Source of the DNA: Chrysomallon squamiferum
Taxonomy: Eukaryota; Animalia; Mollusca
DNA length: 64,000 nt
Assembly: GCA_012295275.1 (NCBI GenBank)
Contig: CM022675.1
Span: forward strand, 2,666,001-2,730,000
Direction: 5' to 3'
Within the stretch, counting starts at the first letter, position 1. Each line of letters opens with the position of its first letter. The notes beneath the pieces were generated by a model. That model ran no database searches. It was not told where the DNA came from and saw only the letters and a program-made list of their open reading frames with translations. The position numbers and the translations under genes were made by a program. Positions 5,190 through 54,700 of this stretch are shown here, in pieces.

Positions 5190-8100
5190 TCATTTAGAAA
5201 ATATATCTTTGTAGTTGAGAAGCATCAGTTCTATGACTTTCTGTTCAAACTTGGCAGCCATCAGACTGATCATGGGGTCTGTTTCAAGTGGCCTCATCAA
5301 CGTCGGCGCAAACACGATAGCCAGGTTCTCAGCACTCATCATCGTCTTCTCCTTCATCTCCGCAACTCTGAAACACAACATTTCAACTCTGAAACACAAC
5401 ATTTCAACATTCTAACTCTGAAACACAACACTTCAACATTCTAACTCTGAAACACATTTCAACATTCTAACTCTGAAACACAACATTTCAACATTCTAAC
5501 TCTGAAACACAACATTTCAACATTCTAACTCTGAAACACAACATACATTTTAACTCTGAAACACATTTCAACATTTTGTTTTTAACTCTTAAATGCCCAA
5601 CATTTCAACATTTCATTTTTAACTCTGAAACACACAACATTTAAACATTTCATTTTTTACTCTGAAACACAACATTCCGACATTCAATTGTTAACTCTGA
5701 AACAGTACAGTTCAACACTTCTGTTTTAACTATGAAACAAAATATTTCAATATTTCATTTTTAACTGTGAAAGAAAAAAAAACATTTCAGTATTTCCCTT
5801 TGAAACGAAAAACAAACATTTCAAGTTTCATTTTTGTCTGATGAAAGACAACACAGAACTCATCTAAAGGAGACAGAAGGCATTTCAGTATCTGGTAGTC
5901 TGCTCACCTCACTAAGTGATACAAAAGATATTTCAGTGTCTGAGAGTCTGCTCACAGTACTCACTTGACTAAGTGAGACAGAAGATATTTCAGTGTCTGA
6001 GAGTCTGCTCACAGTACTCACTTGACTAAGTGAGACAGAAGATATTTCAGTGTCTGAGAGTCTGCTCACAGTACTCACTTGACTAAGTGATACAAAAGAT
6101 ATTTCAGTGTCTGGCAATGAGCTCACAGTACTCACTTGACTAAGTGATACAAAAGATATTTCTGTGTCTGGCAATGAGCTCACAGTACTCACTTGACTAA
6201 GTGATACAAAAGATATTTCTGTGTCTGGCAACGAGCTCACAGTACTCACCTGACTAAGTGAGACAGAAGATATTTCATTGACTGGTAATGAGCTCACAGT
6301 ACTCACCTGACTAAGTGAGACAGAAGATATTTCAGTGTCTGGTAATGAGCTCACAGTACTCACCTGACTAAGTGAGACAGAAGATATTTCAGTGTCTGGT
6401 AATGTCTGCTCACAGTACTCACCTGACTAAGTGAGACAGAAGATATTTCAGTGTCTGGTAATGAGCTCACAGTACTCACCTGACTAAGTGAGACAGAAGA
6501 TATTTCAGTGTCTGGTAATGAGCTCACAGTACTCACCTGACTAAGTGAGACAGAAGATATTTCAGTGTCTGAGAGTCTGCTCACAGTACTCACCTGACTA
6601 AGTGAGACAGAAGATATTTCAGTGTCTGAGAGTCTGCTCACAGTACTCACCTGACTAAGTGAGACAGAAGATATTTCAGTGTCTGGTAATGAGCTCACAG
6701 TACTCACCTGACTAAGTGAGACAGAAGATATTTCAGTGTCTGGTAATGAGCTCACAGTACTCACCTGACTAAGTGAGACAGAAGATATTTCAGTGTCTGG
6801 TAATGAGCTCACAGTACTCACCTGACTAAGTGAGACAGAAGATATTTCAGTGTCTGACAGTCTGCTCACAGTACTCACCTGACTAAGTGAGACAAGATAT
6901 TTCAGTGTCTGGTAATGAGCTCATAGTACTCACCTGACTAAGTGAGACAGAAGATATTTCAGTGTCTGGTAATGAGCTCACAGTACTCACCTGACTAAGT
7001 GAGACAGAAGATATTTCAGTGTCTGACAGTCTGCTCACAGTACTCACCTGACTAAGTGAGACAGAAGATATTTCAGTGTCTGGTAATGAGCTCACAGTAC
7101 TCACCTGACTAAGTGAGACAGAAGATATTTCAGTGTCTGGTAATGAGCTCACAGTACTCACCTGACTATGTGAGACAGAAGATATTTCAGTGTCTGGTAA
7201 TGAGCTCACAGTACTCACCTGACTAAGTGAGACAGAAGATATTTCAGTGTCTGGTAATGAGCTGGGGCTAACTTGTTACAGATCTCCTTCACCTGTCTGA
7301 CTTTCTCAGTGTTGTCTACGTCACATTCTACAAAATTGTCAAATTCTGTTTAAAACACTGATACAAGTGAGAAGATGTGACAGCTAAAAGCTTTTCTGAA
7401 CTTAATCAAAAACACAAACATATCATTCCAACATTCAACTTCTTTAATTGTAATTACTCAAAAATAATTTAATGTTTATTTAATCATTCTCCGACCGTTT
7501 TCACAAGACGGTGACAAATGATTTCTTAATAGATGAAATTAGTTAATTAATATATTAGTTATTAATAAATGATTTTCCAAATGTATAAAATTAATAATGT
7601 GAACTCTTAGTTAAAGACTGAATTGAAATAAATTATTTCTAAAACACAGAAGAAGAGTCAAAGTATAATTATCACGTCTTTTCAATAGTGTTTAAGAACT
7701 TACTTATAACGTCTAACAGAAGCTTGTAGACATCAAATGAGACTAGTGGTATTGGAAGTAGTCTAAAATACAGTTTCAGTGCACTTGTGATTGTATTGAT
7801 GTCATCATACTTGCTGGCACTGATGTCAGCATTCTCAACATCTACAACAACAACAAAAATGTTTACATTTGTGTGTTCAAAAGTATAATCATGTGTATGT
7901 ATGAATATGTATCTATGTATATATGTTTGTATGTATGCAAGTGTGTATGTATGTGTGTTGTGTTACTCAGTATTTTTTTTTTTATATAGTTAATAATCTT
8001 CATATTACTTATCTAAACAAGCTGTCTGTGAACGTTTTTAAAAATGAATTTTAAAACATTTATGTAAATAAAATAAAAATGTAAACAACACATTTACATT

Positions 8101-11100
8101 AATCTCTAACCTTTATCAAACGCCATTCTGATTGATTCTACATCGTCATGGAAACCTGCTATCCGATACAATCCTTCTGAGTTCATACCTTTCAAGTAAC
8201 AAAAATAAACAAGTTATTTAGCTACTAATAAGATATACCTACAAATATTGCATAAAACAGTTTCATTTCAAATTTTATGTTGAGTTAATACATGATTATC
8301 ATGTTTCAGTTCACAAAAATTATAACATCATTGTCATAAAAAAAATAAAAATAGAAATAAAAATAACATTTTAATAATAATAACATCAACAACAACAACA
8401 GTAATAGTAATAATGATAAAACTACTAAAAGTACTACTACTATACTACTACTACTATTATTACTACTACTACTGCTACTACTACTACTACTACTACTATT
8501 AACAATAATAAATATAAATCAGTCAAATGTAAAGACAGATTTTTAAAGATCATATTGTGTAAGTTCACTGAAAAGAACATTTCTTACCTCTAGATTCTAT
8601 TTCTTTTATACATTTTTCTACAACGTGAGGTATCCCAGTCTTCTGAGCTTTGACCACTGTGGTCAGATCAGCACCGTAGATGCGCTTCACGTACTTCATG
8701 TCAGGCATGCAGTCGTTAGGAACTTTCTCTGAGCACTTCTTGTGAGCCTCAAAACCACAGTCTGAAATTTACTCTTCTCCTTGTCACATACTCTTTATTT
8801 TATTCAACAACAGTTAATATTACACAAACAACAGCTATTATTACTTCCACCACTAGTACCATTATTACTACTGTTACATCAACTACTACTGCTGCTATTC
8901 CTACCACTATTAGTCTACTACTGCTGCTATTCCTACCACTATTAGTCTACTACTGCTATTACAAGAGTTACATTAACAACTACAACTACTATTAGCCTAC
9001 CACTACTACTACTACTGCTAGCGTTACATCAGTAACTTCTACTCCTATTACTACTACTACTGCTATTACTATTACTATTGTCATTTCAACAACTACTACC
9101 ACTATTACTACTACTACTATTATTTACACTACTACTACTACTACTAGCCCACTATTACTCTTATTAATAAGACTGCTACTATTACTAGTGTTTCATTAAC
9201 ATCTACTATTAGTGGTATTTGTGATAGTAGTAGTAGTAGTAGTACTAGTAGTAGTGACTGCAGCAGTGTAGTTGTACTGTTACTACTGCTGCCTTTGCTG
9301 AGAGCTACATTATTATTAGAAAGTAATAAAAAAAGAAACAGAAGCCCAGTAGAGTTGTTGTGGTAGATGCTACTGTGTGCGCTGTTGTATATTTTAAACA
9401 AATATCTGACACTGACCTTGACATTTGACCCCTTGAGCTATTAATCCCCACATAAAGTTGGCACAAAAGTCACACCAGTGAAGGCCCATAAAATTCTGAA
9501 CCTGTGAAATTTAAATAAATTAAAATTAATAACCAAAATGTTGTTAAATAACCACGTATACATGTATTAGCCTCTCACAAACACTCATGTTGTTTTACTA
9601 TATAAAATTCTGAACCTGTGAAATTGAAAATTGAAAATTAATAACCAAAATGTTCTTATATAAACTACATATAGATGTATTAGACTCTCATGTTATTTTA
9701 CTATATAAAATTCTGAAGCTGTTGAATAGAAAATTTGAAATTAAATTTAGAAATAAACACGCTATCATTAGAAAATGTAGTTTACATACATATATATTAT
9801 TTTCTAATGATAGCGTGTTTATTTTAATGGATAGTTAAAACTGTTATGAACAGTGTAAGCAGTTTAAGGCTTTTTTTTATCATTGATATTAAAATACTTA
9901 CTAAATAGTGCACAATATCTCACACACACACACACACACTCACACACACACACACACACACATGCACACATAAACCAAAAAAACAAGATTCTATGTCTCC
10001 AAGGCAACAATATCCTCAGTTACCTTAAAACAATGAGCTTTCTCTGTGTCCTTCCAGTCAGGTGAGAAATCTTCATCATCATCCTCCTCCCCCTCGTCTG
10101 TCATCGACTCCTGCAGTGAAAACAATACAGTGTCTAGTGTGGACCAACAGTGAAAACAACAAAGTGTTTAGTGTGAACCAACAGTGAAAACAACACAGTG
10201 TCTAGTGTGGACCAACAATGAAAACAACAAAGTGTGGACCAACACAGCGTCTAGTGTGAACCAACAGTGAAAACAACACAGTGTCTAGTGTGAACCAACA
10301 GTGAAAACAATACAGTGTTTAGTGTGGACCAACAGTGAAACAATACAGCGTCTAGTGTGGACCAACAGTGAAACAACACAGTGTCTAGTGTGAACCAACA
10401 GTGAAAACAATACAGTGTTTAGTGTGGACCAACAGTGAAAACAACACAGTGTCTAGTGTGGACCAACAGTGAAACAATACAGTGTCTAGTGTGAACCAAC
10501 AGTGAAAACAATACAGTGTATATTGTGAACCAACAGTGAAAACAATACAGTGTCTATTGTGAACCAACAGTGAAACAATACAGTGTCTAGTGTGAACCAA
10601 CAGTGAAAACAATACAGTGTCTAGTGTGAACCAACAGTGAAAACAATACAGTGTCTAGTGTGAACCAACAGTGAAAACAACACAGTGTCTAGTGTGAACC
10701 AACAGTGAAAACAATACAGTGTCTAGTGTGAACCAACAGTGAAAACAACACAGTGTCTAGTGTGGACCAACAGTGAAAACAATACAGTGTCAAGTGTGGA
10801 CCAACAGTGAAAACAATAGTGTCTAGTGTGGACCAACAGTGAAAACAATACAGTGTCTAGTGTGAACCAACAGTGAAAACAACACAGTGTCTAGTGTGAA
10901 CCAACAGTGAAAACAACACAGTGTCTAGTGTGGACCAACAGTGAAAACAATACAGCGTCTAGTGTGGACCAACAGTGAAAACAATACAGTGTCAAGTGTG
11001 GACCAACAGTGAAAACAATACAGTGTCAAGTGTGGACCAACAGTGAAACAATACAGTGTCTAGTGTGAACCAACAGTGAAAACAACACAGTGTCTAGTGT

Positions 11101-13378
11101 GGACCAACAGTGAAACAATACAGTGTCTAGTACAGTAAAAACAAATTTTATTTTAAACTGCTTAAAAGGAATAAACGAGTGTCATAGCTACCACCATAAC
11201 ACATTATCTTGTTACAGAAACACACACACACAGAAATAAAATAATAAAAAATAAAATAAAATAAAGTAAAGTAAAAAAAAATAATAATAATAATCAATAA
11301 ATAAAAATAAAATAAAATAAAATAAAATAAAATGAAGTAAATAAATAAAAAATAAAACATAATAAAATAAAATAAAATAAATAAATAAAACAAAATGAAA
11401 ATCAATAAATAAAATAAAAAATAAATAAAATAAAATAAATAATAAAAAACAAAAAAAATAAATAAATAAAATAAAATAAAATAAAATAAAATAAAAACAC
11501 ATGAAAGAAAAAGATAAATGGAAAAACAATTAGTAAAACAGAAAAAAAATAAATGAAAAGAAATTATTTACCATTTATGTTATAAAAAAAGCAGTTAGTC
11601 ATAAAAAAATGTATTCATATATCATCTTTCAAAAACCAAATTAAACAATCCAAAATGAAAACCCTGCAGCTTAAATTAGGGAAAGATAATAAAAAGAATT
11701 TGACTTAAATACAAGGGCAATAACATTTGTATTCTAGAGCCTAGAAATAATCATTCAAGACCAAATAAACAGGTCAAAACAAATCTGGCATTAAGCAGAA
11801 AAATTATCATAAAAAAAATATATATATAAAATTTTACAATACATACTAAGTGTTTCATAACTTACAAATTAATTGTTAAAAGTTTTATAAAAACGAACAA
11901 ATTCCTAACTGTATATTTAAATCCCATAGTTCCAAATCATGGCATTACTTTATCAGAATTTAACATAAAAAAATAATAATAATAATAATAATAATAAAAA
12001 TAATTTTAAAAGTATACATATCTAGTTTCATAAAAAAGGTGAAGGGTAATGAAAAGACAAGCTGTTTAAAATTTAATAAAGTTGTTTTAATGTGTGAAAC
12101 AGGAAACAGTTTTCTGTTTGCTGGGCTGGAGAGGCAGACAGACAAAGAGCAATGATAAAGAGAAAAGTACTGACAGGGGTAGACAACTCTTGCTGCCTGG
12201 TGTCATCGCGACTGTCGGTGACATCGAGTCTCCGTGCTGTTTTGGCTTTGCTCCGTGTTTTGTACTTAGATTTGTAGTTGTACGCCAGGTACGGAGACTC
12301 CTCGTAGTTCGATTCGTTTGACAACGTGGAGATGTAGTCGGAGGCTCGCAGCTCAATGTAAAAGTGGATGAGGCCATCTGCCACGAGGTCGTGAACAGTG
12401 TCAAAACGTTTCTCACCAACAAAATGTTTTCCTTCATAATACAACTTGAAATTTTTGGTCTCTCCATTGAATCTGCAAAAAAGAATTAAGAATTAAACAA
12501 ACAGGACAACAACAGTAAAAACAATGACAAAATGTTTCACAGAAAAATGTATTTTTAAACAGAGAATTTAGAGAGGTTTCTTGATGGGAAAAGAGGAGAT
12601 TATAAATTGTCAGCATTAAAAGCATCAATTTTAAAGTAAATCAGATTTAGACCAAAATTGTCAAGTTCTGACTAAAGTAATCAGGTTTAGACTAAAATAG
12701 TCAAGTTTTGACTATAGAAATCAAGTTTAGACTAAAATAGTCAAGTTCTGACTTAAGTAATCAGGTTTAGACAAAAACAGTCAAGTTCTGACTAAAGTAA
12801 TCAGGTTCAGAGTAAGACTGTGAGTTCAGCAAGCTTACTAAGTAGATTTTACACAGCTCAAAGTAACTGTTTTAATTTCTTTTATCTGCCACAGTACTGA
12901 AAAATACAGTTAAAATATGTCTAATTCTGCCTGTTAGTAGTGTGTGTAATAACGTATTGCTAACACATTTAACTACGTGTCTACTGTTTATTGTTAAGCT
13001 AGCTCACCTGATAGCGAGAGTGAATGCATCAGGAGCCCGCTCACTCTTTCTCACGAGATAACAACCGTCTCCTTCACTTAGGAGCTGGTCCGTTTCTTCT
13101 CGACTGATACTTCCGTGAAATCTGCAAACAAAATGAACTTCTTTTACAAAATCTGTTGTTAATCATATCTTTAAACTCATTTAAACTAAAACAACAACAC
13201 TCGTAATAACAAAATAAATAATAATAAGAAGAAATTATGATAACAGTATTAATAACATCTAACGATGATAATATCAAATATGTAAGATTTTGGATTAGCT
13301 GAATTTGATGAATACTTTAAGTATTTTGTTTCAAATAATAATCATATATAAAACATTGTTAAATTAAAAAAAAAACAG

Positions 13379-13416
<38 letters not shown>

Positions 13417-13656
13417 AACTTTGATTTTCTCCTCATACTAAACTACTTTAGAAATGCTATTTTGTTTCTGTCATTGCTATAATCATTTATATTTATGAAA
13501 AGAAACTCAATTAAGTTCTGAGTAAGTAATAACCAATCAAGCAAACAACCAAAGACAATAAACAATGAAACAAACAAAGAAACAAACAAAAAAGCAAATA
13601 TATAAAATAGGTTTACTTACTCTTTACCATAGAAGAAGGGTCTGTTCAAAACCTGA

Positions 13657-13712
<56 letters not shown>

Positions 13713-16700
13713 TAACAATATACAATAAATAAAAAATATAAAAAAAATGAATGAATAAAAAAAACAGAAATATTAAAAGAAAAATAAACAATATAACATG
13801 TCACTTATTTTTTATTTTTTTGTTTTTTTTTATCTACAGTTGTAATAAAATTAAATTTTGCTCCAGTAGTATAACCTTTCTACTGCTTTAGTCACATTTT
13901 CTAACTTCCAGTTGTCACATAACAACCATATATAAATACAAATCACAGTTTAACACTTTAAATTCTGATTTATTACCATAAAATGTTCAATGTTTTCCTT
14001 AATTATATTTACAAACAATCACAATAATTTATTAAACTGTTGAAGTCAGTCATAGCCTGTTCAGACTAGATCATGATTTATCTGAAAGTGATAAGATAAC
14101 TACTGAAATTTAATAGTTTAACATTATGCAGACAGTACAATGAAACATAAAATGAAAAAGAAAACCAAGAAAAAAACCTTTTTATTTAAAAATTATTGAA
14201 TAAAATCTTGTGTGAAATGTAGCTACTACTTTAAACTAGACTAATCAAAATCACACACACACACACACACATGCAATCACACACACAAATACACATATTA
14301 ACACAAAAATTACTGAATATAATTCAAAATATGAAATATAGCTATTATTAAACTAGATCAGTGAAAATCATACACATACACTGAAATGAAAACATAAATA
14401 AAGAAATAAAAATAAAAATATCTTCTCTTTCATAGTATATAAGCAAACTAACTTAACTAACTAAATAAGCAAATAAATAAATAAATAAATAAATAACATT
14501 TAAATCTGCATTTTGCAAGAGGTTTAATTAATTACTAATTATTTTATCACCAGGCTTCAAAGTATTTCTGTGTTGCACTCACCTCTCTCTGACAAATTAT
14601 TCTTCTAGGTTTGGGTGCTTCCTGTTGCAAAGTGTATACTGTGTAATATAAAAATATCACATTGTAGTATGTATATATTGTGTTTACAATAATTACTTAC
14701 AGTATGTGTGTACAGTGTAATATAAAAATATCACACTGTAGTGTGTATATATTGTTTACAATAACTTACAGTATGTGTGTACTGTGTAATATAAAAATAT
14801 CACACTGTAGTGTGTATATATTGTTTATAATAACTTACAGTATGTGTGTACTGTGTAATATAAAAATATCATAGTATAGTGTGTATATATTGTTTACAAT
14901 AATTACAGTATGTGTGTAGTGTAATATAAAAATATCACACTGTAGTGTGTATATATTGTTTATAATAACTTACAGTATGTGTGTACTGTGTAATATAAAA
15001 ATTTCACATAGTATGTATATATGTGTTTATCATTCTAATAATAACTTACAGTATGTGTGTACTGTGTAATATAAAAATATCACACTGTAGTGTGTATATA
15101 TTGTTTATCATTCTAATAATAACTTACAGTATGTGTGTACTGTGTAATATAAAAATATCAGACTGTAGTGTGTATATATTGTTTATAATAACTTACAGTA
15201 TATGTGTACTGTGTAATATAAAAATATCACATTGTAGTGTATATATATTGTTTATAATAACTTACAGTATGTGTGTACTGTGTAATATAAAAATATCACA
15301 CTGTAGTGTGTATATATTGTTTATAAAAACTTACAGTATGTGTGTACTGTGTAATATAAAAATATCACACTGTAGTGTGTATATATTGTTTATCATTCTA
15401 ATATAAAAATATCACAGTGTGTGTGTAGTATAATTGTTTATAAAAATATCACATGTGTGTACTGTGTAAAAATATATATGTTGTGTATATTGTTTATAAT
15501 AACTTACAGCATATGTGTACTGTGTAATATAAAAATATCAGACTGTAGTGTGTATATATTGTTTATAAAAACTTACAGCATATGTGTACTGTGTAATATA
15601 AAACTATCAGACTGTAGTGTGTATATATTGTTTATAAAAACTTACAGCATATGTGTACTGTGTAATATAAAACTATCAGACTGTAGTGTGTATATATTGT
15701 TTATAATAACTTACAGTATGTGTGTACTGTGTAATATAAAAATATCACATTGTAGTGCATATATATGGTTTATAATAACTTACAGTATGTGTGTACTGTG
15801 TAATAAAAAAATATCACACTGTAGTGTGTATATATTGTTTATCATTCTAATAATAACTTACAGTATGTGTGTAGTGTAATATAAAACTATCACACTAGTA
15901 TGTGTGTATATATTGTTTATAATAACTTACAGTATGTGCAGTGTAATATAAAACTATCAGACTGTAGTGTGTGTATATTGTGTTTATAATAACTTACAGT
16001 ATGTGCAGTGTAATATAAAACTATCACACTAGTATGTGTGTATATATTGTGTTTATAATAATAACTTACAGTATGTGCAGTGTAATATAAAACTATCACA
16101 CTAGTATGTGTGTATACATTGTGTTTATAATAATAACTAACAGTATGTGCAGTGTAATATAAAACTATCACACTGTAGTATGTGTGTATATATTGTGTTT
16201 ATCACTCTAATAATAACTTACAGTATGTCTTCCATGTTGGCAGTGGCTGACTCTCCTCCCCATCTGCAAGAACAGTAACATAGTCATAATTACGTTGATG
16301 TCTGCATTGGTTACGATGATGTGAGTGTTTTGATCTGAAACTTACGTCTGTAACCTCCATTATACAACTCACTGCTCAATGTATATTACAATGTTCATAA
16401 AACTCACTGCTCAATGTATATTACAATGTTCATAAAACTCGCTGCTCAATGTATATTACAATGTTCATAAAACTCACTACTCACTGTATGTTACAATGTT
16501 CATAACACTCACTGTTCATTTTATATTGTGTCTTTGTCAAAATAAATTTAAAAAAAAAATTATTTAATCTTTGATGCACTGTAACCTGCAAACTGTTTAT
16601 CCTGACAAAGTACATAATATTTCAGTGTTTACAGAAAAATGGTGATGTTTTATTAATTCTGTATAAAAATAAAGTCAAGCAATCATCTCAGATAAAATTG

Positions 16701-18959
16701 AACATATTATTTTTCCTTTTTTTTCCTTTTTTTGTTTTGTTTTTAAATACAGAAATAAATATATATAGTAAAAGAATTTCAAACAGTGGTGCACACAAAG
16801 CTTTCACAAAAATGTTTCCTGTTTACAGCTGAGATTTCAGTTTCCTGCAATGAAAGTTGAAACATTTGTCATTATTGTAATCCTCTTTTAATACTGACAC
16901 AATAATTAACATCTTTCTTTGATCAGTAATTTTTTTCTCTCTTTTTTTTTTTTTTGTTGTTCCTTTGTTTCCTACAGGAAATGTAAATGGGTCAGTTCAA
17001 CTGTTATTATAAAAAGTAAGAATCTGCAACATCCTTGTTTATCAGAAAACACTGTAAGTCAACTCTCCTTTAGTAGACTCCAGAGTAATCTACACATTAA
17101 TCTACAAATTTAATCTTCAGTGAATTAACACTTCACACATTAAACTACAAATTGTCCATCAAGGAAAAAATTAATAAAATAAAATAAAATAAAATAAAAT
17201 AAAAAATAAAATAAAATAAAATAAAATAAAATTAGCAGAAAGTGTTTAGACAATTGGTAAATAAAAGTAAATAACAAATTTGTTTTTCTAATAAAGTAGA
17301 TTCTCTGAATCCTTTTTTCCTTTATCTTCCTTTGAACAGTGAGACTTATGTGAATAAATGATGAACACAGCCAATTAATCTGAGGTAGTCAGGAATTTGT
17401 CCTTGACCTTGCACAGTCCTTTTAATTTATTTGTTCAAACGAACAAAACAAAATGTTATCAGAAAATTAGTTATAAACTGTCTGAGAAGAGAAGAGTACA
17501 GTTTGACACTTCCTAGTCACTAACTTACATTGAAATTACTTCCTGGTATCTGACCTGCTGGTCACATGACCCCCATCATTATATACAGAGATTTACTTAT
17601 CCACTGAGAAAACATCACGACACTGGTAGATCAGTTTACACTGTAACAAGTGAGTCGTGAGCACCTACACGATAAAAACTAGAAATAACAACAGTAACTA
17701 GTTCAAAACTCCATACAAGTTTATATCTCTGTCATGTTTTGGGAGACGTTTTGTTTGTTATTTTTTTGCTTGTGTGTTTTTTGTTGATTTTTTTCCAGAA
17801 TTTAATGTGATAACTACAACTAGACAAAATAAAATATTTAACTAACATGATTATAAATCAACGAGCAAAATACATATTTATAAACAGTAATATTGTGATT
17901 GGTAAATATAAATAAATAATAAAATTTTATAATAATTACAGTAAAAATAACTTATCTTGATTATTATTATTTTTATTATAAAAAATAAAATAAAAAATAA
18001 CAGTTGAAAATTATCTCATTCAAGCAGAATAACAAACTGGAGTTTGTTTTTTGTTTATGTGAAACTGATCCTCAGCTACTAGCTCCGTCACTGTATTATA
18101 CACATTTTAAAACTGCCACCACTGATTATAAAACATTTATCACTCTATGCAGGTATTTGTTTTACAATGTAGTTATTAACAATCTCCTTTCAGTGATAAT
18201 TTTATTATGCATGTGTAATCATGTTTTCCTGGTTATGACACCAGTCTAAATACATTATATAACAGGAAATAATTTAATGCAAATACATTAATTTTCTCTT
18301 TTTTTAAATTTCAATTTTTATGTTATTTTTTATTTTTTATTTTTTTTTTTAGTAAGGATTAATGCAAAAGCTATATTTACTGTTAATATTAATAAAAAAT
18401 AAAATTGTATTTTTAATCTTAATGTTTTCGCATGACAATATGATTCAATATGGGATAATACATTGGTTCACACCACTCTACTCTGTTTTTATTATCACTT
18501 AACTATTTTTGAGATCTGAATACATCTGCACCACTATAAAAAGTCTATAGTATCCTACGATGAACACAGTTTAGATATTATGACATCACACACAAAACAT
18601 AAATGAATATATATATTACCTCCACACAAAGATATATGTTTCAACACAGCAAGAAATAACTAAACGACTAAAGATTATAATTACACAATTTACAGTATAT
18701 TCTTTTTTTACTGAAATCTGGATGAAAATGCAGACATGAGAATAAGGATGTAAACTCTGTACATATCCATTACCGTAACTCTTTATCTGCAGGACCATGT
18801 ACTTTAAATAATAATAATAAGATTAAGAAGAAGAAGAATACAAAGAAGAAGAAGAACTATTCAACTAACAAACGAAATTATAAATAAATAGTGTTCATCC
18901 GCAATATTTTGTGTCGCTTATAGAAATGTTTGTAATAAAAATTTAAACAAATAACTGCA

Positions 18960-19003
<44 letters not shown>

Positions 19004-19167
19004 ATTTTTTAAAAAATATTTTGTTCATTATCATGACATAATGATAATCTAGATTGTAATATCTAGTCTTAGAAATGAAATGCCGACCTATCTACTACTA
19101 TAAATAAATGTAATAAACCTAAAAATAAAATCTTACAGTGCATCTTGGTCGCCCTCTCTTTTACCAT
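5190..19167 (-). CDS. CHN1: Chimaerin (SH2 + C1 + RhoGAP; N-/beta-chimaerin-like), 13 coding exons
   Basis: Hand-assembled GT-AG exons with consistent phases: 19167-19137, 16263-16222, 14638-14583, 13652-13621, 13121-13008, 12472-12175, 10110-10024, 9501-9417, 8761-8588, 8188-8111, 7841-7704, 7327-7219, 5367-5190. The translation includes [22 protein letters not shown]2 [14 protein letters not shown]...YLVRKS, C1 [50 protein letters not shown], and Rho[40 protein letters not shown]. It is probably co-orthologous to CHN1 and CHN2. The first exon is the least certain. Confidence 0.93.
5364..5770. repeat. ~29-bp tandem repeat spanning the acceptor of the last chimaerin exon
   Basis: Unit aactctgaaacacaacatttcaacattct reads tgttgtgtttcag|AGTT on the minus strand. 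Copies degrade with distance from the exon. Confidence 0.9.
5860..7263. repeat. 51-bp minisatellite, about 27 copies: end of chimaerin exon 12 plus its splice donor
   Basis: Minus-strand unit gctcattaccagacactgaaatatcttctgtctcacttagtcag|gtgagtactgtga is identical to the real exon end ([15 protein letters not shown]) plus the donor. Confidence 0.97.
8400..9270. repeat. Degenerate (ACT/TAG)n low-complexity tracts flanking chimaerin exon 9
   Basis: actactact runs at 8420-8500 and 8840-9150, and agtagt at 9225-9255. Confidence 0.8.
10114..11130. repeat. 33-34-bp minisatellite, about 30 copies, abutting the chimaerin exon 7 acceptor
   Basis: Unit cagtgaaaacaatacagtgtctagtgtg(a/g)accaa. On the minus strand the last copy runs straight into cag|GAG at 10113-10110. 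Confidence 0.95.
11232..11496. repeat. (AAAAT)n low-complexity tract
   Basis: Imperfect aaaat/aaat runs. Confidence 0.85.
12630..12815. repeat. ~41-bp tandem repeat, about 4 copies
   Basis: Unit tcaagttctgactaaagtaatcaggtttagactaaaatag. Confidence 0.8.
14631..16228. repeat. ~69-bp minisatellite, about 22 copies, filling chimaerin intron 2; the unit is a mini-intron plus a 12-nt exon-derived spacer
   Basis: Minus-strand unit: gtaagttattataaacaatatatacacactacagtgtgatatttttatattacacag|TACACACATACT. The terminal copies provide the real donor (16221) and acceptor (14639). Confidence 0.95.
16366..16516. repeat. 35-bp tandem repeat, about 4 copies
   Basis: Unit aactcactgctcaatgtatattacaatgttcataa at 16366, 16401, 16436 and 16471. 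Confidence 0.9.
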
Positions 19168-19736
19168 TCACCGGATTAATCAGAGGCACAATTTAAACAA
19201 TCAAATGTTCATGTGCCAAACAAAATCAATACAATATCGTCCATTTTGAATTAACTGGTGTTAATCATTAGACGTAATGATGTATGAGGTACTAGTTTCA
19301 CTTTCGGCGCTGCTGAACCGTGCTCATTGTACGATAACTTTCACTGACCTTTTTTTATTTATTTATTTTTTATTATTATTATTTCAATCCTTTTTCTCAT
19401 TTTACACAAAATGAATTGAAATGACCTATTAGTATTATTTAAAAAAAAAAAAAAAAATTCATTTCGATGAATTATTTATAATCAGATTTTTAAAAATATT
19501 CCAGTGGCAATAAAAATATAAATATAAAAATTTAAACTATAAATATAAATGTCGGTGTCAGTCGTTCATTTATTTTAATATTTATTTATAACAAGTTTTT
19601 AATTTTTCTTCCTTTCTTTGTTTATTATTATTTAACAGTATATTTATTTATGTTGTAATGAAAACAAATATTTAGCAAAGATTACATATTATTTCCTAAG
19701 AACCCCACCACAATTAAGTAATAAATAAAATTTCAG

Positions 19737-19770
<34 letters not shown>

Positions 19771-20227
19771 TTACAAGATTTTTTTTTAAGTTATCAAATT
19801 AGAAAAAGAAATGTAAAGAATATTTTCTTTCCGTTTTCTTTCCTTACTCTTTTAGTGCCGTATTTTTATTTATTTATTTACTTTTGTATTTATTCAATTT
19901 TATATTTATTTATTTCTCGCCCCGGCCTTTTAAAGTAGATTTAAGTAACCGTATTTTAGATGCACTTTCTCTCTTAGTTTCTTCCGGCTTCGTTTTTTGT
20001 AACAAAATTATTTATTGGTTAGCATGTAATTAAATAACCAATCACTTTTCGTGTAATAATTACAAGCATTCATCTTTTACTTCCGGACAAGGGCGAAGGA
20101 AAGGCATGCTTTAAAATCACGTTTTCGCTTTGCTTTTGAGATTGGTTTTGTTTTAGGAATAATATTTGTTTCACAAAGAGTGTTGTTTTAAGAAATTATT
20201 GAAGTGAGGCACTGAGCAACCAATTCA
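19168..20227. promoter_or_regulatory. Divergent promoter region between chimaerin and YME1L1
   Basis: The start codons are about 1.06 kb apart, head to head. The region is locally CpG-enriched, with ETS-like CTTCCGG (19981 and ~20080), CCAAT boxes (~20014, ~20038) and a YY1-like CCATTTTG (~19241). Motif function is inferred. Confidence 0.6.
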
Positions 20228-39885
<19,658 letters not shown>

Positions 39886-45731: not shown

Positions 45732-48700
45732 TCAGAGGATAACACAACATTTACAATATCTCTGCCTCCCACCACCCACTGAGGGTGGGGGAGTCACAGG
45801 TGCGAAGTAGGCGTGTACTTTAATATCAGGAAGTCGAGTCTGCAAGTAAAGTTTAAATATATATATATACATATATAGATCATCACATCATAGTACCTCT
45901 GTTATAGTATATTAAATTATATTACATCTATATGTCATTTTTATGTTATATCACATTTATGTTATTTTATTTTCATGTATTATGAGACTGGTGTAGTGAT
46001 ATACAGTATTATGGTGTAGTGACATACAGTATTATGGTGTAGTGACATACAGTATTATGGTGTAGTGACATACAGTGTTATGTGTAGTGACATACAGTAT
46101 TATGTGTAGTGACATACAGTATTATGTGTAGTGACATACAGTATTATGTGTAGTGACATACAGTATTATGTGTAGTGACATACAGTATTATGGTGTAGGA
46201 CATACAGTATTATGGTGTAGTGACATACAGTATTATGTGTAGTGACATACAGTATTATGTGTAGTGACATACAGTATTATGGTGTAGGACATACAGTATT
46301 ATGGTGTAGTGACATACAGTATTATGGTGTAGGACATACAGTATTATGGTGTAGTGACATGGTGTTATGAGGCTGGTGTAGTGATATACAGTATTATGGT
46401 GTAGTGACATACAGTATTATGGTGTAGTGACATACAGTATTATGGTGTAGGACATACAGTATTATGGTGTAGTGACATGGTGTTATGAGGCTGGTGTAGT
46501 GATATACAGTATTATGGTGTAGTGACATACAGTATTATGGTGTAGTGACATACAGTATTATGGTGTAGTGACATACAGTATTATGGTGTAGTGACATACA
46601 GTATTATGGTGTAGTGACATACAGTATTATGGTGTAGTGGTGTAGTGACATACAGTATTATATGTGTAGTGACATACAGTATTATGGTGTAGTGACATAC
46701 AGTATTATGTGTAGTGACATACAGTGTTATGGTGTAGTGACATACAGTATTATGGTGTAGGACATACAGTATTATGGTGTAGTGACATGGTGTTATGAGG
46801 CTGGTGTAGTGATATACAGTATTATGGTGTAGTGACATACAGTATTATGGTGTAGTGACATACAGTATTATGGTGTAGTGACATACAGTGTTATGGTGTA
46901 GTGATATACAGTGTTATGGTGTAGTGATATACAGTGTTATGCTGTAGTGACATACAGTGTTATGGTGTAGTGACATACAGTACTATGGTGTAGTGACATA
47001 CAGTGTTATGGTGTAGTGACATACAGTGTTATGCTGTAGTGACATACAGTATTATGGTGTAGTGACATAAAGTACTATGGTGTAGTGATATACAGTATTA
47101 TGGTGTAGTGATATACAGTATTATGGTGTAGTGACATGGTGTTATGAGGCTGGTGTAGTGATATACAGTGATATGGTGTAGTGATATACAGTGATATGGT
47201 GTAGTGACATACAGTATTATGGTGTAGGACATACAGTATTATGGTGTAGTGACATACAGTATTATGGTGTAGTGACATACAGTATTATGGTGTAGGACAT
47301 ACAGTATTATAGTGTAGTGACATACAGTATTATGTGTAGTGACATACAGTGTTATGGTGTAGTGACATACAGTATTATGTGTAGTGACATACAGTGTTAT
47401 GGTGTAGTGACATACAGTATTATGGTGTAGGACATACAGTATTATGTGTAGTGATATACAGTGTTATGGTGTAGTGACATACAGTATTATGGTGTAGTGA
47501 CATACAGTATTATAGTGTAGTGACATACAGTATTATGTGTAGTGACATACAGTGTTATGGTGTAGTGACATACAGTATTATGGTGTAGTGACATACAGTA
47601 TTATAGTGTAGTGACATACAGTATTATGTGTAGTGACATACAGTGTTATGGTGTAGTGACATACAGTATTATGTGTAGTGACATACAGTGTTATGGTGTA
47701 GTGACATACAGTATTATGGTGTAGGACATACAGTATTATAGTGTAGTGACATACAGTACTATGTGTAGTGACATACAGTATTATGGTGTAGTGACATACA
47801 GTATTATGTGTAGTGACATACAGTGTTATGGTGTAGTGACATACAGTATTATGGTGTAGGACATACAGTATTATGGTGTAATGATATACAGTATTATGGT
47901 GTAGTGACATACAGTCTGAGACTGGTGTAGTGACATGGTGTGACACAGTGAGGTTATGTTTAAAGTCTGAGCCACTCACTATGTGTAGTGACATACAGTA
48001 TTATGGATGCCACAGAGTTATGAGCTGACATACAGTGTTACAGCTCAATCCTCTCCAGACTCTGACAGGACATACAGCAGGTGTTCTAGAGATGCGTCAG
48101 TGATCAGAGGACAGTTATCCAGTTCCAACACTTCGAGGTGTTCTATAGCACATGGACTTTCTCCTAGCTGTCGAATTCCTTCATCAGTTATCAGCTCACA
48201 GTGAGAGAGACTCTGTGTAATCATAGTAACAATCATAGTAGTAAGTTGTTGTTGCAGTAGAAATAATACTAGTAGTAGTATTAATAACAGTAATAATAAT
48301 AATGATGGTGGTAGTAATAGTTGTTATAGTAATAATAATAGCAGTAACACTAATAATAACATTAATAGTAGTAGTAGTCATAGTAGTAGTAGTAGTAGTA
48401 GTAGTCATTGTAGAAATAATAGTAGAAGTAGTAGTAGAAATAATATAACATAAATAACAATCACATTGATGATGATGATGATGATGATAATAATAATGAT
48501 GATGATGATGATAAAGGTAGTAGTAATAGTAGATATAAATCTAGTAGTGGTAGCTGCTGTCATAATAATAAAAATAGTGGTAGTAATAGTTGTTATAGTA
48601 AGTTAATACCAACAGCAGTACACTAGTAATAAAATTAACAGTAGTAGTAGACATAGTAATAGTAGTAGTAGTAGTACAAATAATATAAGAAACAAATCAG

Positions 48701-51700
48701 AAGTAGTATGAAATAATAATAAATAAATAATAATAATAATAATAATAATAATGAAGATGATGATGATGATGATGATAAAGGTAGTAGTAGTAATAGTAGA
48801 AATAAATCTAGTAGTGGTAGCTGCTGTCATAATAATAAAAATAGTAGTAGTAGTAGTAATGCTAGTAGTAGTTGAATTACCAACAGCAGTAGTACTAGTA
48901 GACTAAGTAATAGTACTAGTAGTCAAAGTAACAGTAGTAGTAGACTAAGTAATAGTAGAAGTAGACTAAGTAATAGTAGTAGTAGTAATACTTAGACTAA
49001 GGAAACAGTAAAAGATCTGTCTCTGTCAATCAATCTCTGTGTCTGTCAGTGTGTCTGTCTGTCTGTCTGTCAGGCTGTCTGTTTGTCTGCTTGTCAGTGT
49101 GTCTGTCTGTCTGTGTGTCTGTCAGTGTGTCTGTCTGTCTGTCTGTCTGTGTGTCTGTCTGTCTGTCAGTGTGTCTGTCTGTCTGTGTCTGTGTGTCTGT
49201 CAGTGTTGTTGTCTGTCTGTCTGTCAGTGTTTCTGTCAGTCTGTCTGTGTCTGTCAGTTTGTCTATCTGTCTGTCAGTGTGTCTGTCTGTCTGTCTCTGT
49301 GTCTAACTGTAAATTACTTACCAAGGCTGCAAGTTTATTACAGTACAAAGCAAGATGAGCAAGAGTTGTGTCTGTTATCTAAAAATAGAAACTGAGAATG
49401 TTTCATCTGTGTTCAAAATATTTAAATATAGAAATGTTGTTGTTCAAAATATCTAAAAAATAGAAACTATGAATACTTTATCTGTGTTCAAAATATTTAA
49501 ATATGCAAATGTTTATGTTTTGAAAATCTTAAAATGGAATTTGAGTATTTCATGTTCAAATTATCTAAACACAGACTCTGTCAATAAAATATCTTGAAAA
49601 TATCTCAAATTAGTCAAGTGTATCCCAGCCAAAAAATCTAAAAATAACATCTGTCATCAGAATACTTAAAAACAGAAACTTTAAACATTTTAATTATTTT
49701 CGTGTTCACCAACAGAACACATTGAGCTAGTACAGTGTTAAAAGAACTGAGTTAACTCACCTGAATACACACCAACAGAACACATTGAGCTAGTACAGTG
49801 TTAAAAGAACTGAGTTAACTCACCTGAATACACACTAACAGAACACATTTAGCTAGTACAGTGTTAAAAGAACTGAGTTAACTCACCTGAATACACACTA
49901 ACAGAACACATTGAGCTAGTACAGTGTTAAAAGAACTGAGTTAACTCACCTGAATACACACTAACAGAACACATTTAGCTAGTACAGTGTTAACTCACCT
50001 GAATACACACCAACAGAACACATTGAGCTAGTACAGTGTTAACTCACCTGAATACACACTAACAGAACACATTGAGCTAGTACAGTGTTAACTCACCTGA
50101 ATACATTCTTCTAGATCCATCTTTTCCAACTGATGACAGTTCTGCAATATGTAAATATATAAAAAGATAAACACAAACTAAGTTATACTTAAATACAAAC
50201 TAAGTTATACTTAAACACAAACTAAGTTATACTTAAACACAAACTAAGTTATACTTAAATACAAACTAAGTTATACTTAAACACAAACTAAGTTATACTT
50301 AAACACAAACTAAGTTATACTTAAATACAAAGTGAAAGTTAAATAAATACAAACTAAAGGATAGGTAAACTAAGTGAAAGTCAAATACTAACTACTAAGT
50401 CATGTACAAACTAAGTGATAGTTAAATTCCAAGTCATAGTTAAATACGAACTATGTGTAGTTAAATACTAAGTGATAGTAAAATTCAAACTGATAGCTAA
50501 ATACAAACTAAGTGATAGTTTAATACAAAATAATTATAAACACACACAAAGTGAAATTTAAATACAAAAAAATAAATGGTAGTTAATTACTAAGTAATAA
50601 TAAAATATTAACAAACTGATAGTCTAATACAGACTAAATGATAGTTGAAAACCAAATAATAGCTACATACTAACTAAGTGATAGTTAAATACTAAGCAAT
50701 AGTTAAACTAAGTGATAGTTAAACACTAACTAAGTGATAGTAAAATACAGACCCTGGCTAAAGCCTGAAATCCACTGTCAGTGAGATGTGTACAGCTTGC
50801 AACTTCCAAAGTTCTGAAAATTTTAAAATAACTTGAAAAATTCTCTTGTGTTTTAAAACAACTTGAAAAATCTCTTGTGTTTTAAAATAACTTGAAAAAC
50901 TCTTGTGTTTTAAAACAACTTGAAAAATCTCTTGTGTTTTAAAACAACTTGAAAAATATCACTTCAATATTTGTTGGGTTTTTTTGGTTTTATTTCATTT
51001 TTACTCCAGATATTTAAATCTTAGTTTTTTTCTTTTTTTCTTCATTAAATAAATAAATAAATAAAACTATCGAATTTTAAGTTACATTTTAAGTTTCATT
51101 CATGCAGATATATTATGAAAAAAAAAAGAAGAACTGATAAATTTACAAAACGTGTTTTTAAAAATGACGTAGAAGTGTAAACAGAAAAATGTAAGATGAA
51201 AAGAGAACTTACTCAAGTTCATGGCAACCGTTGCCGAGCGATGTGAGAGCAGAGTCAGTGAGGCGTGGACAGTTGGACACACACAGAAACAGAAGCCCGT
51301 GACACTTGTTACTAATGATGTGAATAGCTTCGTCTGTGATCAGCTGTATTCAGTAAAAACAACTTGTTAGAAAACACACTGTCTTGTGTAACATGAATGT
51401 ATTATACGTAACATATGTATTAAATGTAACATGAATGTATTATACGTAACATATATATATATTAATGTAACATGAATGTATTATACATAACATATATGTA
51501 TTAAATGTAACACAAATGTATTATACGTAACATATATGTATTAAATGTAACATGAAAGAATTAAACGTAAAATATATATGTATTAAATGTAACATGAATG
51601 TATTTTGAGTACAGGAATATATTAAGTGAAACATGAATGTATTAAGTGTGATATTAATGTATTAAGTGTAACATAAATGTATTAAGTATAACATAAATGT

Positions 51701-54700
51701 ATTAAGTGTAACATGAATGTATTAACTGTGATATCAATGTATTGTTAATGTATTACGTGTAACATGAATGTATTGTTAATGTATTAACTGTGATATCAAT
51801 GTATTGTTAATGTATTACGTGTAACATGAATGTATTGTTAATGTATTAACTGTGATATCAATGTATTGTTAATGTATTACGTGTAACATGAATGTATTGT
51901 TAATGTATTACGTGTAACATGAATGTATTGTTAATGTATTACATGTAACTTGGATGTATGAAAACAGACCTGACAACCCTGCAAGTTGAGTCTGCGTAGA
52001 TGAGGACAGTGTTCTGCTAGGTGACGAATTCCATCATCACTGATCTGAAATACAAAAATATCTTACAGAAAACACAATCACTGATCTGAAATACAAAAAT
52101 CTCTTACAGAAAACACAATCACTGATCTGAAATACAAAAATCTCTTACAGAAAACACAATCACTGATCTGAAATACAAAAATCTCTTACAGAAAACACAA
52201 TCACTGATCTGAAATACAAAAATCTCTTACAGAAAACACAATCACTGAAATGAAATACAAAAATCTCTTACAGAAAACACAATCACTGATCTGAAATACA
52301 AAAATCTCTTACAGAAAACACAATCACTGATCTGAAATAAAAAATCTCTTACAGAAAACACACACAACAAAATATTTTACTTTCATGTCTGAAATTTCAA
52401 AACCAATAACTAAACAAACACAAACATTTTTAGAAAAAAATATAAAATAAAGAAAATTAAATTTAAAAACTTATTTTCGTAATTTGTAAAATCTAAATTA
52501 TAATTTGTTAATAAAAAGGAACAGTTATAAATTTTGAACGAAATATACCATTTAAAGAGTTATTTGCATACAACATTTTACAAAATGAAACCTATAATTA
52601 TTTTAACAATCGTTTGTAAAATGTATAAACTAAAAAAATAAACAATGATGTAATAATTACTGTAAATAGTATTTCAAAGCGACTACTGAATAAATGATAA
52701 ATACCAAAGAACAACCACGTCCAATAAAAATAATCAGTTTGTTGCAGCCTTTAGCGAGAGCCTCAATCCCATCATTAGTGATTGAAGTGCACCAGGATAT
52801 ATCTAAGTACTCCAGCTGTCGACACCCATCACTGAAACATTGTTACATACTTACTAAAATACACAAAATTACAGCAAGTATTAAATGTTTTATTAATACA
52901 CAAAATTGTTTATTACTAATATTATATTTCAAAATACACAAAATTATTAAATATTATATTTTAAAATACCATAAAATTGTTAAATATTTATTAAAAGACA
53001 CGAAATTATTTAAATATTATGTTTTTAAAATATACAAAATTATTAAGTATTTATTAAAATACACAAAATGATTACAAATGTTTTAAAATACACAAAATTA
53101 TTACATATTCTGTTTATTAAAATATACAAAATTTTCCAAAAAAATTCCCCCCCCCCACTAAGATACATAAAATCTTAATATCAAAACTTTTAGCAACATA
53201 TTCAGTTTCAGAGTAACAGGTGTACACTATAATAGAAGTAAGTTTTCACTCATACACACATTACTAGTTTTATAATGCAGTTATTTAACAAATAAATATT
53301 TCTTCAAATAAAATTCTACCATATACTTCTTACTCATAATCTGTCAATTTTAAAATGTCATTATTTTAAAATTCTAATTTATATATAAATACAAACACAG
53401 TCAGTGCTGTCATTCATCTTCAATTTTTAGAGATCATACTGAAATAAATACGTCAGTAAGAGTCATATGAGTCACTGCATGTTACTTCAATGTCATACTG
53501 TCTTACTATAGCATGTTAGCATTGTTATATTAAAATTATAGTGTGTTGTGTTAATCATTCTGATGTTAGTGTTCAGTCAGATTGATGTGATGTGTAACAC
53601 TAGTGCCACACTGATTTATTATGTGTAATATAAATGTTTTAAGTTTATCACTGAGTTGAAGGTTTCTGTTAAGATTTGTATTGTTAGTTGTCATGTGGAA
53701 AAGCACTATTACTGTTTATTTCTCATACAGAACAAGGTATGTGATGAGGATGATAATATACTCTCTTATCATCACAAGCTATTTTTATCAAGTATAATAT
53801 TTTAACTAAAATGTTAATGAATGCTAGGATGTAGCAAGAATTACCTGAGAGCTTTTAGAGAATTGTTTGTGATGTCTGGACATGAACTGAGAATTAACTT
53901 CAACAGTTTCTCACTGTTTCTTCCTAAACTAATACATGTTCTGTAAAACAAAAATATTTAAGTTTCACTCAAGTCAAACAGTGACTAAACAACAATATTT
54001 AACAATTTCACTCACGTCATACAGTGACTAAACAAATATTTAACAGTTTCACTCAAGTCAAACAGTGACTAAACAAATATTTAACAGTTTCACTCAAGTC
54101 ATACAGTGACTAAACTAAAATATTTAAGTTTCACTCAAGTCAAACAGTGACTAAACAAATATTTAACAGTTTCACTCAAGTCATACAGTGACTAAACTAA
54201 AATATTTAAGTTTCACTCAAGTCATACAGTGACTAAACTAAAATATTTAACAATTTCACTCACATCATACAGTGAGTAAAATAAAAATATTTAACAATTT
54301 CACTCACAACATACAGTGACTACACTAAATATTTAACAGTTTCACCCACATCATAGTGAGTAAACTAAAAATATTTAACAGATTTGTTCAGACAAAACTA
54401 AACACTCATACAGCCTAAAGGAAAGAAAAACAAAACATAATATGGAAAAGCTTCTCACAAATCAGTAATTTTTTTACAGTTGTTCAGATTCAACACTTCT
54501 ATATTTCTGCACTGTTCTGCAAATGTTCTGAAAATAAAAGTAACGATTGTAAAAATAAATACATTACATTCAGAAAAGCTCTGATCAAGATGTATATCAA
54601 GACTTGGTAAAGAGATTTTTTTAGTTACAGGAAAAAATACAAAACGTTGATTTCTTTTATTTAATGAAAAATAGAATACTTCAAATAATTTTATCTTTTC

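Follow-up and report, generated by a model that had tools for sequence, protein, structure and literature searches.

Intron 2 of a chimaerin gene of Chrysomallon squamiferum raises the question of how a transcript is spliced when the intron is built from tandem copies of a short unit that carries its own donor and its own acceptor, and whether the scraps of exon sequence between these copies act as exons. An earlier note, made from the sequence alone, had described the array and proposed several roles for it. The locus was analysed within a window of 64,000 nucleotides, which is the whole stretch of contig CM022675.1 that we examined; positions are counted from its first letter.

The window is AT-rich (22-37% GC), minisatellites with a period of at least 15 make up 33% of its bases, and it contains three genes, of which all 44 annotated introns are GT-AG. 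The host gene was identified as a chimaerin by its largest exon, which matches N- and beta2-chimaerin in the PDB with an E-value of 1e-20, and the best of 143 protein matches to the gene was Gigantopelta aegis with 83% identity. On the minus strand 13 exons join into a single open frame that runs through to the stop codon. The chimaerin gene carrying the array is an intact gastropod gene, and the gene, the exon numbering and the phase 1 assigned beforehand were all borne out. The other two genes, judged by motifs in their translations, presumably resemble YME1L and FBXL2/20. Chimaerin and the YME1L-like gene lie head to head with their starts about 1 kb apart (19167-20228), possibly with a shared promoter region.

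Intron 2 is a GT...AG intron of 1583 nt in phase 1. Tandem Repeats Finder (TRF) reported a period of 69 with 21.6 copies and 85% matches at 14632-16183, and cutting the intron at its donor motifs gave 21 donor-led blocks, i.e. about 21 copies of a 69-nt unit. The array occupies the entire intron head-to-tail, and each unit holds both a donor and an acceptor. The intron-like part of the blocks measures 57 nt in 10 of 21 and 56-72 nt in 10 more, while one block is rearranged; the earlier count of about 22 mini-intron copies separated by 12-nt micro-exons is thus confirmed by TRF and by the blocks. GT stands at the start of all 21 blocks, in 18 of them as GTAAGTT, and 13 of the 20 internal spacers consist of 12 nt with AG before and GTAAGT after. 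The spacer had been read as a fusion of the start of exon 3 with the end of exon 2, and indeed 11 of its 12 bases are identical to the first 5 nt of exon 3 followed by the last 7 nt of exon 2, the two pieces sharing a 2-nt AC overlap. Placed between exons 2 and 3, the 13 intact spacers keep the frame and are free of stops; they add the residues H-T-Y-L (nine spacers), H-I-C-L (three) or H-I-Y-L (one), as expected from the predicted in-frame addition of four residues.

The copies are not uniform. The AG is lost in 7 of the 20 internal copies (blocks 1-5, 17 and 20). The claim that this loss is confined to the edges holds for blocks 1-5 and 20 and fails for block 17 (~14917), an interior copy that had been overlooked. 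Alignment scores to a central unit were 44-51 in blocks 1-4 versus 51-67 in the other full-length blocks, with the reference block itself left out and with length differences contributing to the scores. The array has a homogenised centre and diverged boundary copies. A second site for the 69-nt unit was not found elsewhere in the window beyond short AT-rich bits. The features are collected in Table 1.

Table 1. Features of the chimaerin gene in and around intron 2 (window positions).
Feature	Position	Strand	Remarks
Exon 1, coding part	19137..19167	-	located via RNA loose end; completes open reading frame of 13 exons
Exon 2 (42 nt)	16222..16263	-	last 7 nt repeated in every spacer; gives the used donor
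Intron 2, ~21 copies of 69-nt unit	14639..16221	-	TRF, block cutting; removed whole in RNA contigs
Blocks 1-5	15862..16221	-	donor retained; acceptor AG replaced by TG in four blocks and deleted in the remaining one
Five intact 12-nt spacers (15784-15795, 15715-15726, 15646-15657, 15577-15588, 15508-15519)	15508..15795	-	
Rearranged 173-nt block	15335..15507	-	intact spacer at its end, 15335-15346
Five intact spacers (15266-15277, 15197-15208, 15128-15139, 15050-15061, 14974-14985)	14974..15277	-	
Block 17	14907..14973	-	acceptor AG deleted (~14917); next donor weakened
Two intact spacers (14839-14850, 14770-14781)	14770..14850	-	
Block 20	14701..14769	-	AG to TG; this completes a 13-bp hairpin predicted to cover the acceptor region
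Block 21 (62 nt)	14639..14700	-	bears the used acceptor
Exon 3 (56 nt)	14583..14638	-	first bases repeated in spacers; follows the used acceptor

The use of the splice sites was followed in four RNA runs of one study (X1-X4), which were at hand as assembled contigs with a depth of 13-19 and were compared at the two intron ends, 14500-14700 and 16150-16355. Such contigs drop rare variants, e.g. infrequent isoforms or bubbles of 12 nt, and the sample possibly contains no nervous tissue. On the exon 3 side (X1, X3 and X4) exactly one contig per run was found, which leads from exon 3 straight into exon 2. On the exon 2 side (X2, X3 and X4) the sole contig leaving the 3' end of exon 2 enters exon 3 directly. 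The loose ends of the RNA contigs are exon sequences, letter for letter. None of the four runs had a spacer-bearing contig at either intron end, rare forms being dropped from such contigs, and no contig of X1-X4 lay on the first or the last unit. The contigs show that the dominant mRNA removes the whole array as one ordinary intron. The outer copies supply the real donor and acceptor, as the earlier note had proposed. The functional use of internal sites that it had also envisaged is not supported: the direct exon 2-3 junction, its own condition for refutation, was the only one in 4/4 runs, at the resolution of contigs that hide rare isoforms and nascent intermediates. The same runs contained two 5' forms of the chimaerin mRNA, one spliced from exon 1 at 19137 (X2, X3) and one in which exon 2 runs upstream beyond 16355 (X2, X3, X4); the upstream-extended exon 2 (16264-16355 region) is an alternative start or a retained intron end.

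How do the outermost sites prevail? Sites were scored with a matrix built from the other 43 introns of the window. The real donor reached 7.1 versus a median of 8.0, the real acceptor 4.2 versus a median of 11.6. Eleven internal donors are identical to the real donor over -7 to +11 (18 nt), and the real acceptor has nine exact internal copies over -21 to +2 (23 nt). Because the internal sites are exact copies, site strength does not pick the real ones. Acceptor-donor pairs 16-300 nt apart and above the score cut-off enclosed a frameshift (17) or a stop (34) in 51 of 51 cases, and such larger chance exons would likely be degraded. Very short exons are poorly recognised without helper factors, and the shortest internal exon in the window has 32 nt. 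We infer that the first donor would be taken together with exon 2 and that the last acceptor would be chosen because it alone opens a definable exon, exon 3 with its 56 nt being of ordinary size. The 12-nt spacers would be too short for exon definition without helper factors, and products with larger chance exons would be cleared by virtue of their stops or frameshifts. In the human F7 gene, according to PMC1557585, the most upstream among identical donors wins.

Taken together we favor the view that the array is a splice-junction minisatellite, which is spliced as one intron in the RNA contigs and probably arose, without effect on fitness, through local tandem duplication, and we give this reading a probability of roughly 0.75. 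Several points count against it. All 13 intact spacers are in frame and stop-free, so degradation would not remove a product that contained one; nested splicing within the array would yield an identical mature mRNA; and the exon-definition step draws on general knowledge of splicing.

The earlier note had considered the array a possible route to intron gain. A degenerate donor pattern picked three loci in metagenome contigs. Two of them (L001 and L003) were chance matches without exon 3 and were dropped. The third, L002, lies on a metagenome contig of another marine animal and is a chimaerin with an intron at the same position and in the same phase, followed by a 56-nt exon 3; this intron has 3852 nt and contains no junction copies. 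Because its position is common to another animal, intron 2 is, as judged from this sequence comparison, old in position and no intron was gained here; the proposed gain fails on the shared position, phase and exon 3 length. Nothing pointed to a mobile or dispersed element either, as the unit had no second site in the window and the spacer junction had no match in viral contigs.

In the spacer, exon 3 sequence precedes exon 2 sequence, an order that calls for a jump backward over the intron. A slip or a switch of template would have led from the first bases of exon 3 to the last bases of exon 2 and so created the first fused spacer, and the 2-3 nt shared as AC or ACA could have provided the microhomology for this jump. 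Slippage or unequal crossing-over would then have multiplied the unit and kept its copies alike, those at the edges diverging most.

Within this scheme the ancestor may not have been a 57-nt intron at all. Instead, deletions and template switching among the junction copies would have trimmed a longer intron before the shrunken unit spread through all of it, and we regard the chances of this course as even. The other 43 introns of the window span 253-4269 nt with none below 253 nt, and the same intron is long in L002; yet 43 introns are a small sample and L002 comes from a distant animal. The donor-to-branch distance of just 39 nt in the unit also speaks for a longer ancestor, although a single duplication of a short intron is simpler. 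Further support comes from the middle of the unit, where blocks 1, 2, 3 and 5 contain an exact second spacer-like 14-mer, i.e. a 14/14 match to the exon 3/exon 2 fusion. For block 1 this match was reached by 13 of 20000 shuffles, and in block 21 a shorter mid-unit form matched 10/10, which 127 of 20000 shuffles reached. However, the match was tested post hoc with three query forms in low-complexity TA/CA sequence, and it is absent from the central block 13, where 11931-16984 of 20000 shuffles did as well. Also in favour of a longer ancestor, the left arm of the predicted hairpin described below resembles an inverted copy of the acceptor.

If the array were a micro-exon nursery, some of its 13 in-frame 12-nt exons would enter the mRNA at a low rate or in neurons, or nested splicing would remove the intron. 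We judge this alternative as a whole unlikely. By sequence the 13 spacers fit the form of microexons, as their 12 nt fall within 3-27 nt, preserve the frame and are flanked by AG and GT. Inclusion of some spacers at low level or in one tissue, e.g. neurons, would amount to micro-exon birth in progress, and it would add four residues at a position where they could loosen the autoinhibition of chimaerin. The split codon of intron 2 aligns with L20 of human alpha2-chimaerin (an offset of 4 was checked on A223 and G228), and L20F in the human protein destabilises the closed, autoinhibited form, as stated in PMC7531002. The segment had one constant length in all 62 homologues in which the pattern found it, out of 122 proteins. 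Because of this single length and the L20-equivalent split codon, inclusion of a spacer would hit a constrained site.

That 13 of 20 spacers keep AG, GTAAGT and frame without a stop, that their sites score like the real ones and that the added residues would fall at a position with a known regulatory role in human chimaerin would suit inclusion; the loss of AG in 7 of 20 copies, none of which stands out as conserved, and the absence of any length change in 62/62 homologues argue against it, as do the four RNA runs without a spacer-bearing contig. In addition, no TGC was found within 25 nt upstream of any of the 11 scored internal acceptors, and this lack of a UGC element (0/11) makes use as a microexon less credible. 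The element is typical of SRRM3/4 microexons, though not strictly required according to bioRxiv 2024.09.17.613571. The spacers are like the SRRM3/4 neural microexons portrayed in that source in being short and frame-preserving with AG and a consensus donor at their flanks, and they differ from them by the missing UGC, a weak pyrimidine tract near the AG, the decay of the copies and the fact that inclusion was not seen in contigs. On balance we consider spacer inclusion improbable.

The losses of AG deserve a closer look, as those at the edges could also stem from selection against inclusion, which would weigh against a neutral array. Of the last 21 intron positions, the A of this AG ranks among the two with the greatest variability (7/21). 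The 3' half of the unit is an imperfect inverted repeat, which is extended by the change of AG to TG in blocks 1-4 and 20. In block 20 the predicted hairpin has 13 perfect pairs and 1 of 200 shuffles folds as well, whereas for a typical unit 22 of 200 shuffles do. Hairpins are known to template mutations, and on the folding model this mechanism may explain the AG losses without selection. Selection against inclusion as the cause of the edge losses is not established because the independent events are few, block 17 in the interior is also AG-less and the change of AG to TG extends the predicted hairpin. A role of the hairpin as a general silencer was rejected, for the real acceptor has such a predicted hairpin too, a typical unit does not fold clearly better than its shuffles, and the hairpin is weak in blocks 8-10.

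Functional splice sites inside a larger intron are characteristic of recursive splicing, with its AG/GT ratchet points, and of nested introns or stwintrons. The chimaerin array is similar in having functional-looking sites within a larger intron and differs in that AG and GT lie 12 nt apart. Classical recursive splicing requires an AG immediately before a GT. Such a ratchet point was sought at the internal AGs and was absent; TAC follows the AG and the donor comes 12 nt further on. Because the internal AGs precede TAC rather than GT, classical recursive splicing is excluded by the sequence, and the recursive-like splicing suggested earlier falls in its classical form. In nested splicing, internal donor-acceptor pairs would be spliced first and the outer sites joined afterwards to give the normal mRNA. 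The internal pairs share the site sequences of the outer pair, and the mature exon 2-3 junction is compatible with one step or with several. Yet the same lack of a ratchet point tells against this order of events, the distance from the donor to the candidate branch A within one 57-nt unit is only 39 nt, the acceptor of a single unit is weak (4.2-4.4 bits versus a median of 11.6), the predicted hairpin covers branch point and pyrimidine tract, and no intron of the window is as short as a unit, the limit being 253 nt. The bare first and last units in the RNA contigs add a weak sign in the same direction. Like the inclusion of spacers, nested splicing is improbable.

A further run, X5, looks like genomic DNA and may or may not be independent of the assembly. 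It holds a 256-nt contig that passes from exon 2 into block 1 with a depth of 55, together with contigs of the unit and of unit-to-unit junctions at depths of 39-303, i.e. at most 5.5 times that of the exon 2 contig, where depth does not equal copy number. Because X5 contains these unit and junction contigs, the array was not invented by the assembly. That it is an artefact of assembly or polishing is very improbable given these several contigs, the passage from exon 2 into block 1 and the ordered differences between copies, even though the exon 3 side is uncovered in X5, the array is not bridged by any read and an exon beside another repeat (47980-48080) looks corrupted. The X5 contig through exon 2 differs from the window at two positions, 16204 and 16306, the latter being shared by three RNA runs; these are alleles or assembly errors.

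A splice-junction minisatellite has known relatives. The mirages of amphioxus are described as tandem copies of exon-intron boundaries in which cryptic AG and GT are kept and splicing is undisturbed, with examples in Adh3, the globins BflGb6 and BflGb9, troponin C and PGBD5, and they were proposed as a route to new introns (PMC3087553, PMC3902484). Going by these reports, the two systems have in common the minisatellite-like boundary copies, the units of tens of bases of which many but not all keep AG/GT, and the divergence of the boundary copies with regular splicing unaffected. The chimaerin array has boundary-spanning units with GT in 21/21 and AG in 13/20, and its regular splicing is kept in the RNA contigs. 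Length differences between haplotypes or cells are a further trait of the class; the contigs of X5 are short and none reaches across the array. In the mirages as reported one boundary each is copied, whereas the chimaerin unit has donor and acceptor in intron order. Furthermore, the chimaerin array has a 12-nt in-frame exon scrap between copies, forms an entire intron of ~21 copies and occurs in a gastropod. It is best classed among the mirage minisatellites, as a variant with two junctions.

In intron 7 of human F7 the first monomer of a 37-bp minisatellite spans the real donor; the identical downstream pseudo-donors are normally silent and the most upstream one is chosen (PMC1557585). The same source names IFI6/6-16, CBS, lamin B2 and PDGF as further human cases; occasional use of the nearest pseudo-sites is described for 6-16 and CBS. 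F7 and chimaerin are alike in having identical internal donors next to the used one, but the F7 repeats, as presented there, hold donors only. Tandem repeats at exon-intron boundaries are also reported from human segmental duplications (PMC2812944). Tandem duplication of a whole intron with flanking exon is represented by Arabidopsis TOUCH3 and by Gao and Lynch 2009, both as cited in PMC4974935. As in TOUCH3, duplication of a whole intron with exon sequence from both sides multiplies the intron; in contrast to the case cited there, the intervening exon of chimaerin is just 12 nt long, there are ~21 copies and the internal ones are skipped in RNA. A published intron made wholly of two-junction units was not found in a literature search that ran mostly outside subscription journals.

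The array extends mirage-type repeats to a gastropod and to units with both splice sites. It also represents a natural experiment in splice-site choice, in which 11 donors and 9 acceptors are exact copies and the outermost pair is used, so that the choice comes down to exon length and context. If any spacer were included, micro-exon birth could be viewed directly; without inclusion the array is probably a neutral by-product of a very repeat-prone genome. Were the nursery to exist, intron multiplication and micro-exon birth would be under way in an animal at a residue that controls autoinhibition.

Finally, copies of splice junctions were counted throughout the window. Intron 2 has 17 extra copies of its donor junction and 14 of its acceptor junction (at most 2 mismatches in 18 nt). 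In the window census 9 of 44 introns had at least one extra copy of a junction of their own and 12 of 88 junctions were copied, while matches of junctions in other introns numbered 0 of 3784. As a rough control, in which microsatellites are included, 880 intronic 18-mers were drawn at random, and 291 of them were duplicated within the same intron. Junction copies are real and common in the window, and not above the general rate of duplication; on this comparison (12/88 versus 291/880) the idea that duplication is directed at splice junctions was rejected. Intron 2 is the only one of the 44 with both junctions copied many times in one unit. In all three genes of the window, arrays that copy junctions are frequent; they form a described class, which the earlier note had overlooked.

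The start of chimaerin intron 12 (5903-7263, minus strand) is occupied by a 57-nt unit, equal to 19 codons, which combines the end of exon 12 with its donor and is present in ~24 copies, with 22 extra donor copies. The YME1L-like gene contains a donor-spanning 69-nt array (33133-36610, plus strand) with 20 extra donor copies; a non-repetitive insert of 1.4 kb (~33980-35420), possibly a mobile element, splits this array. Other junction-spanning duplications with 1-7 extra copies each lie at 23529-23870, 32868-33037 and 38111-38689 on the plus strand and at 52036-52362, 49707-50105, 9500-9630 and 5364-5772 on the minus strand. In the FBXL2/20-like gene the second-last exon is out of frame in its 3' part (47980-48080, minus strand), where pieces of the adjoining 23-nt repeat (45989-47936) are interspersed; this reflects a polishing error or a real conversion by the repeat. 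Large purely intronic arrays were seen at 10114-11131 (minus), 25689-26124 (plus), 26732-30777 (plus) and 53946-54381 (minus); they stop within a few dozen bases of an acceptor, and one with a 31-nt unit comprises 130 copies.
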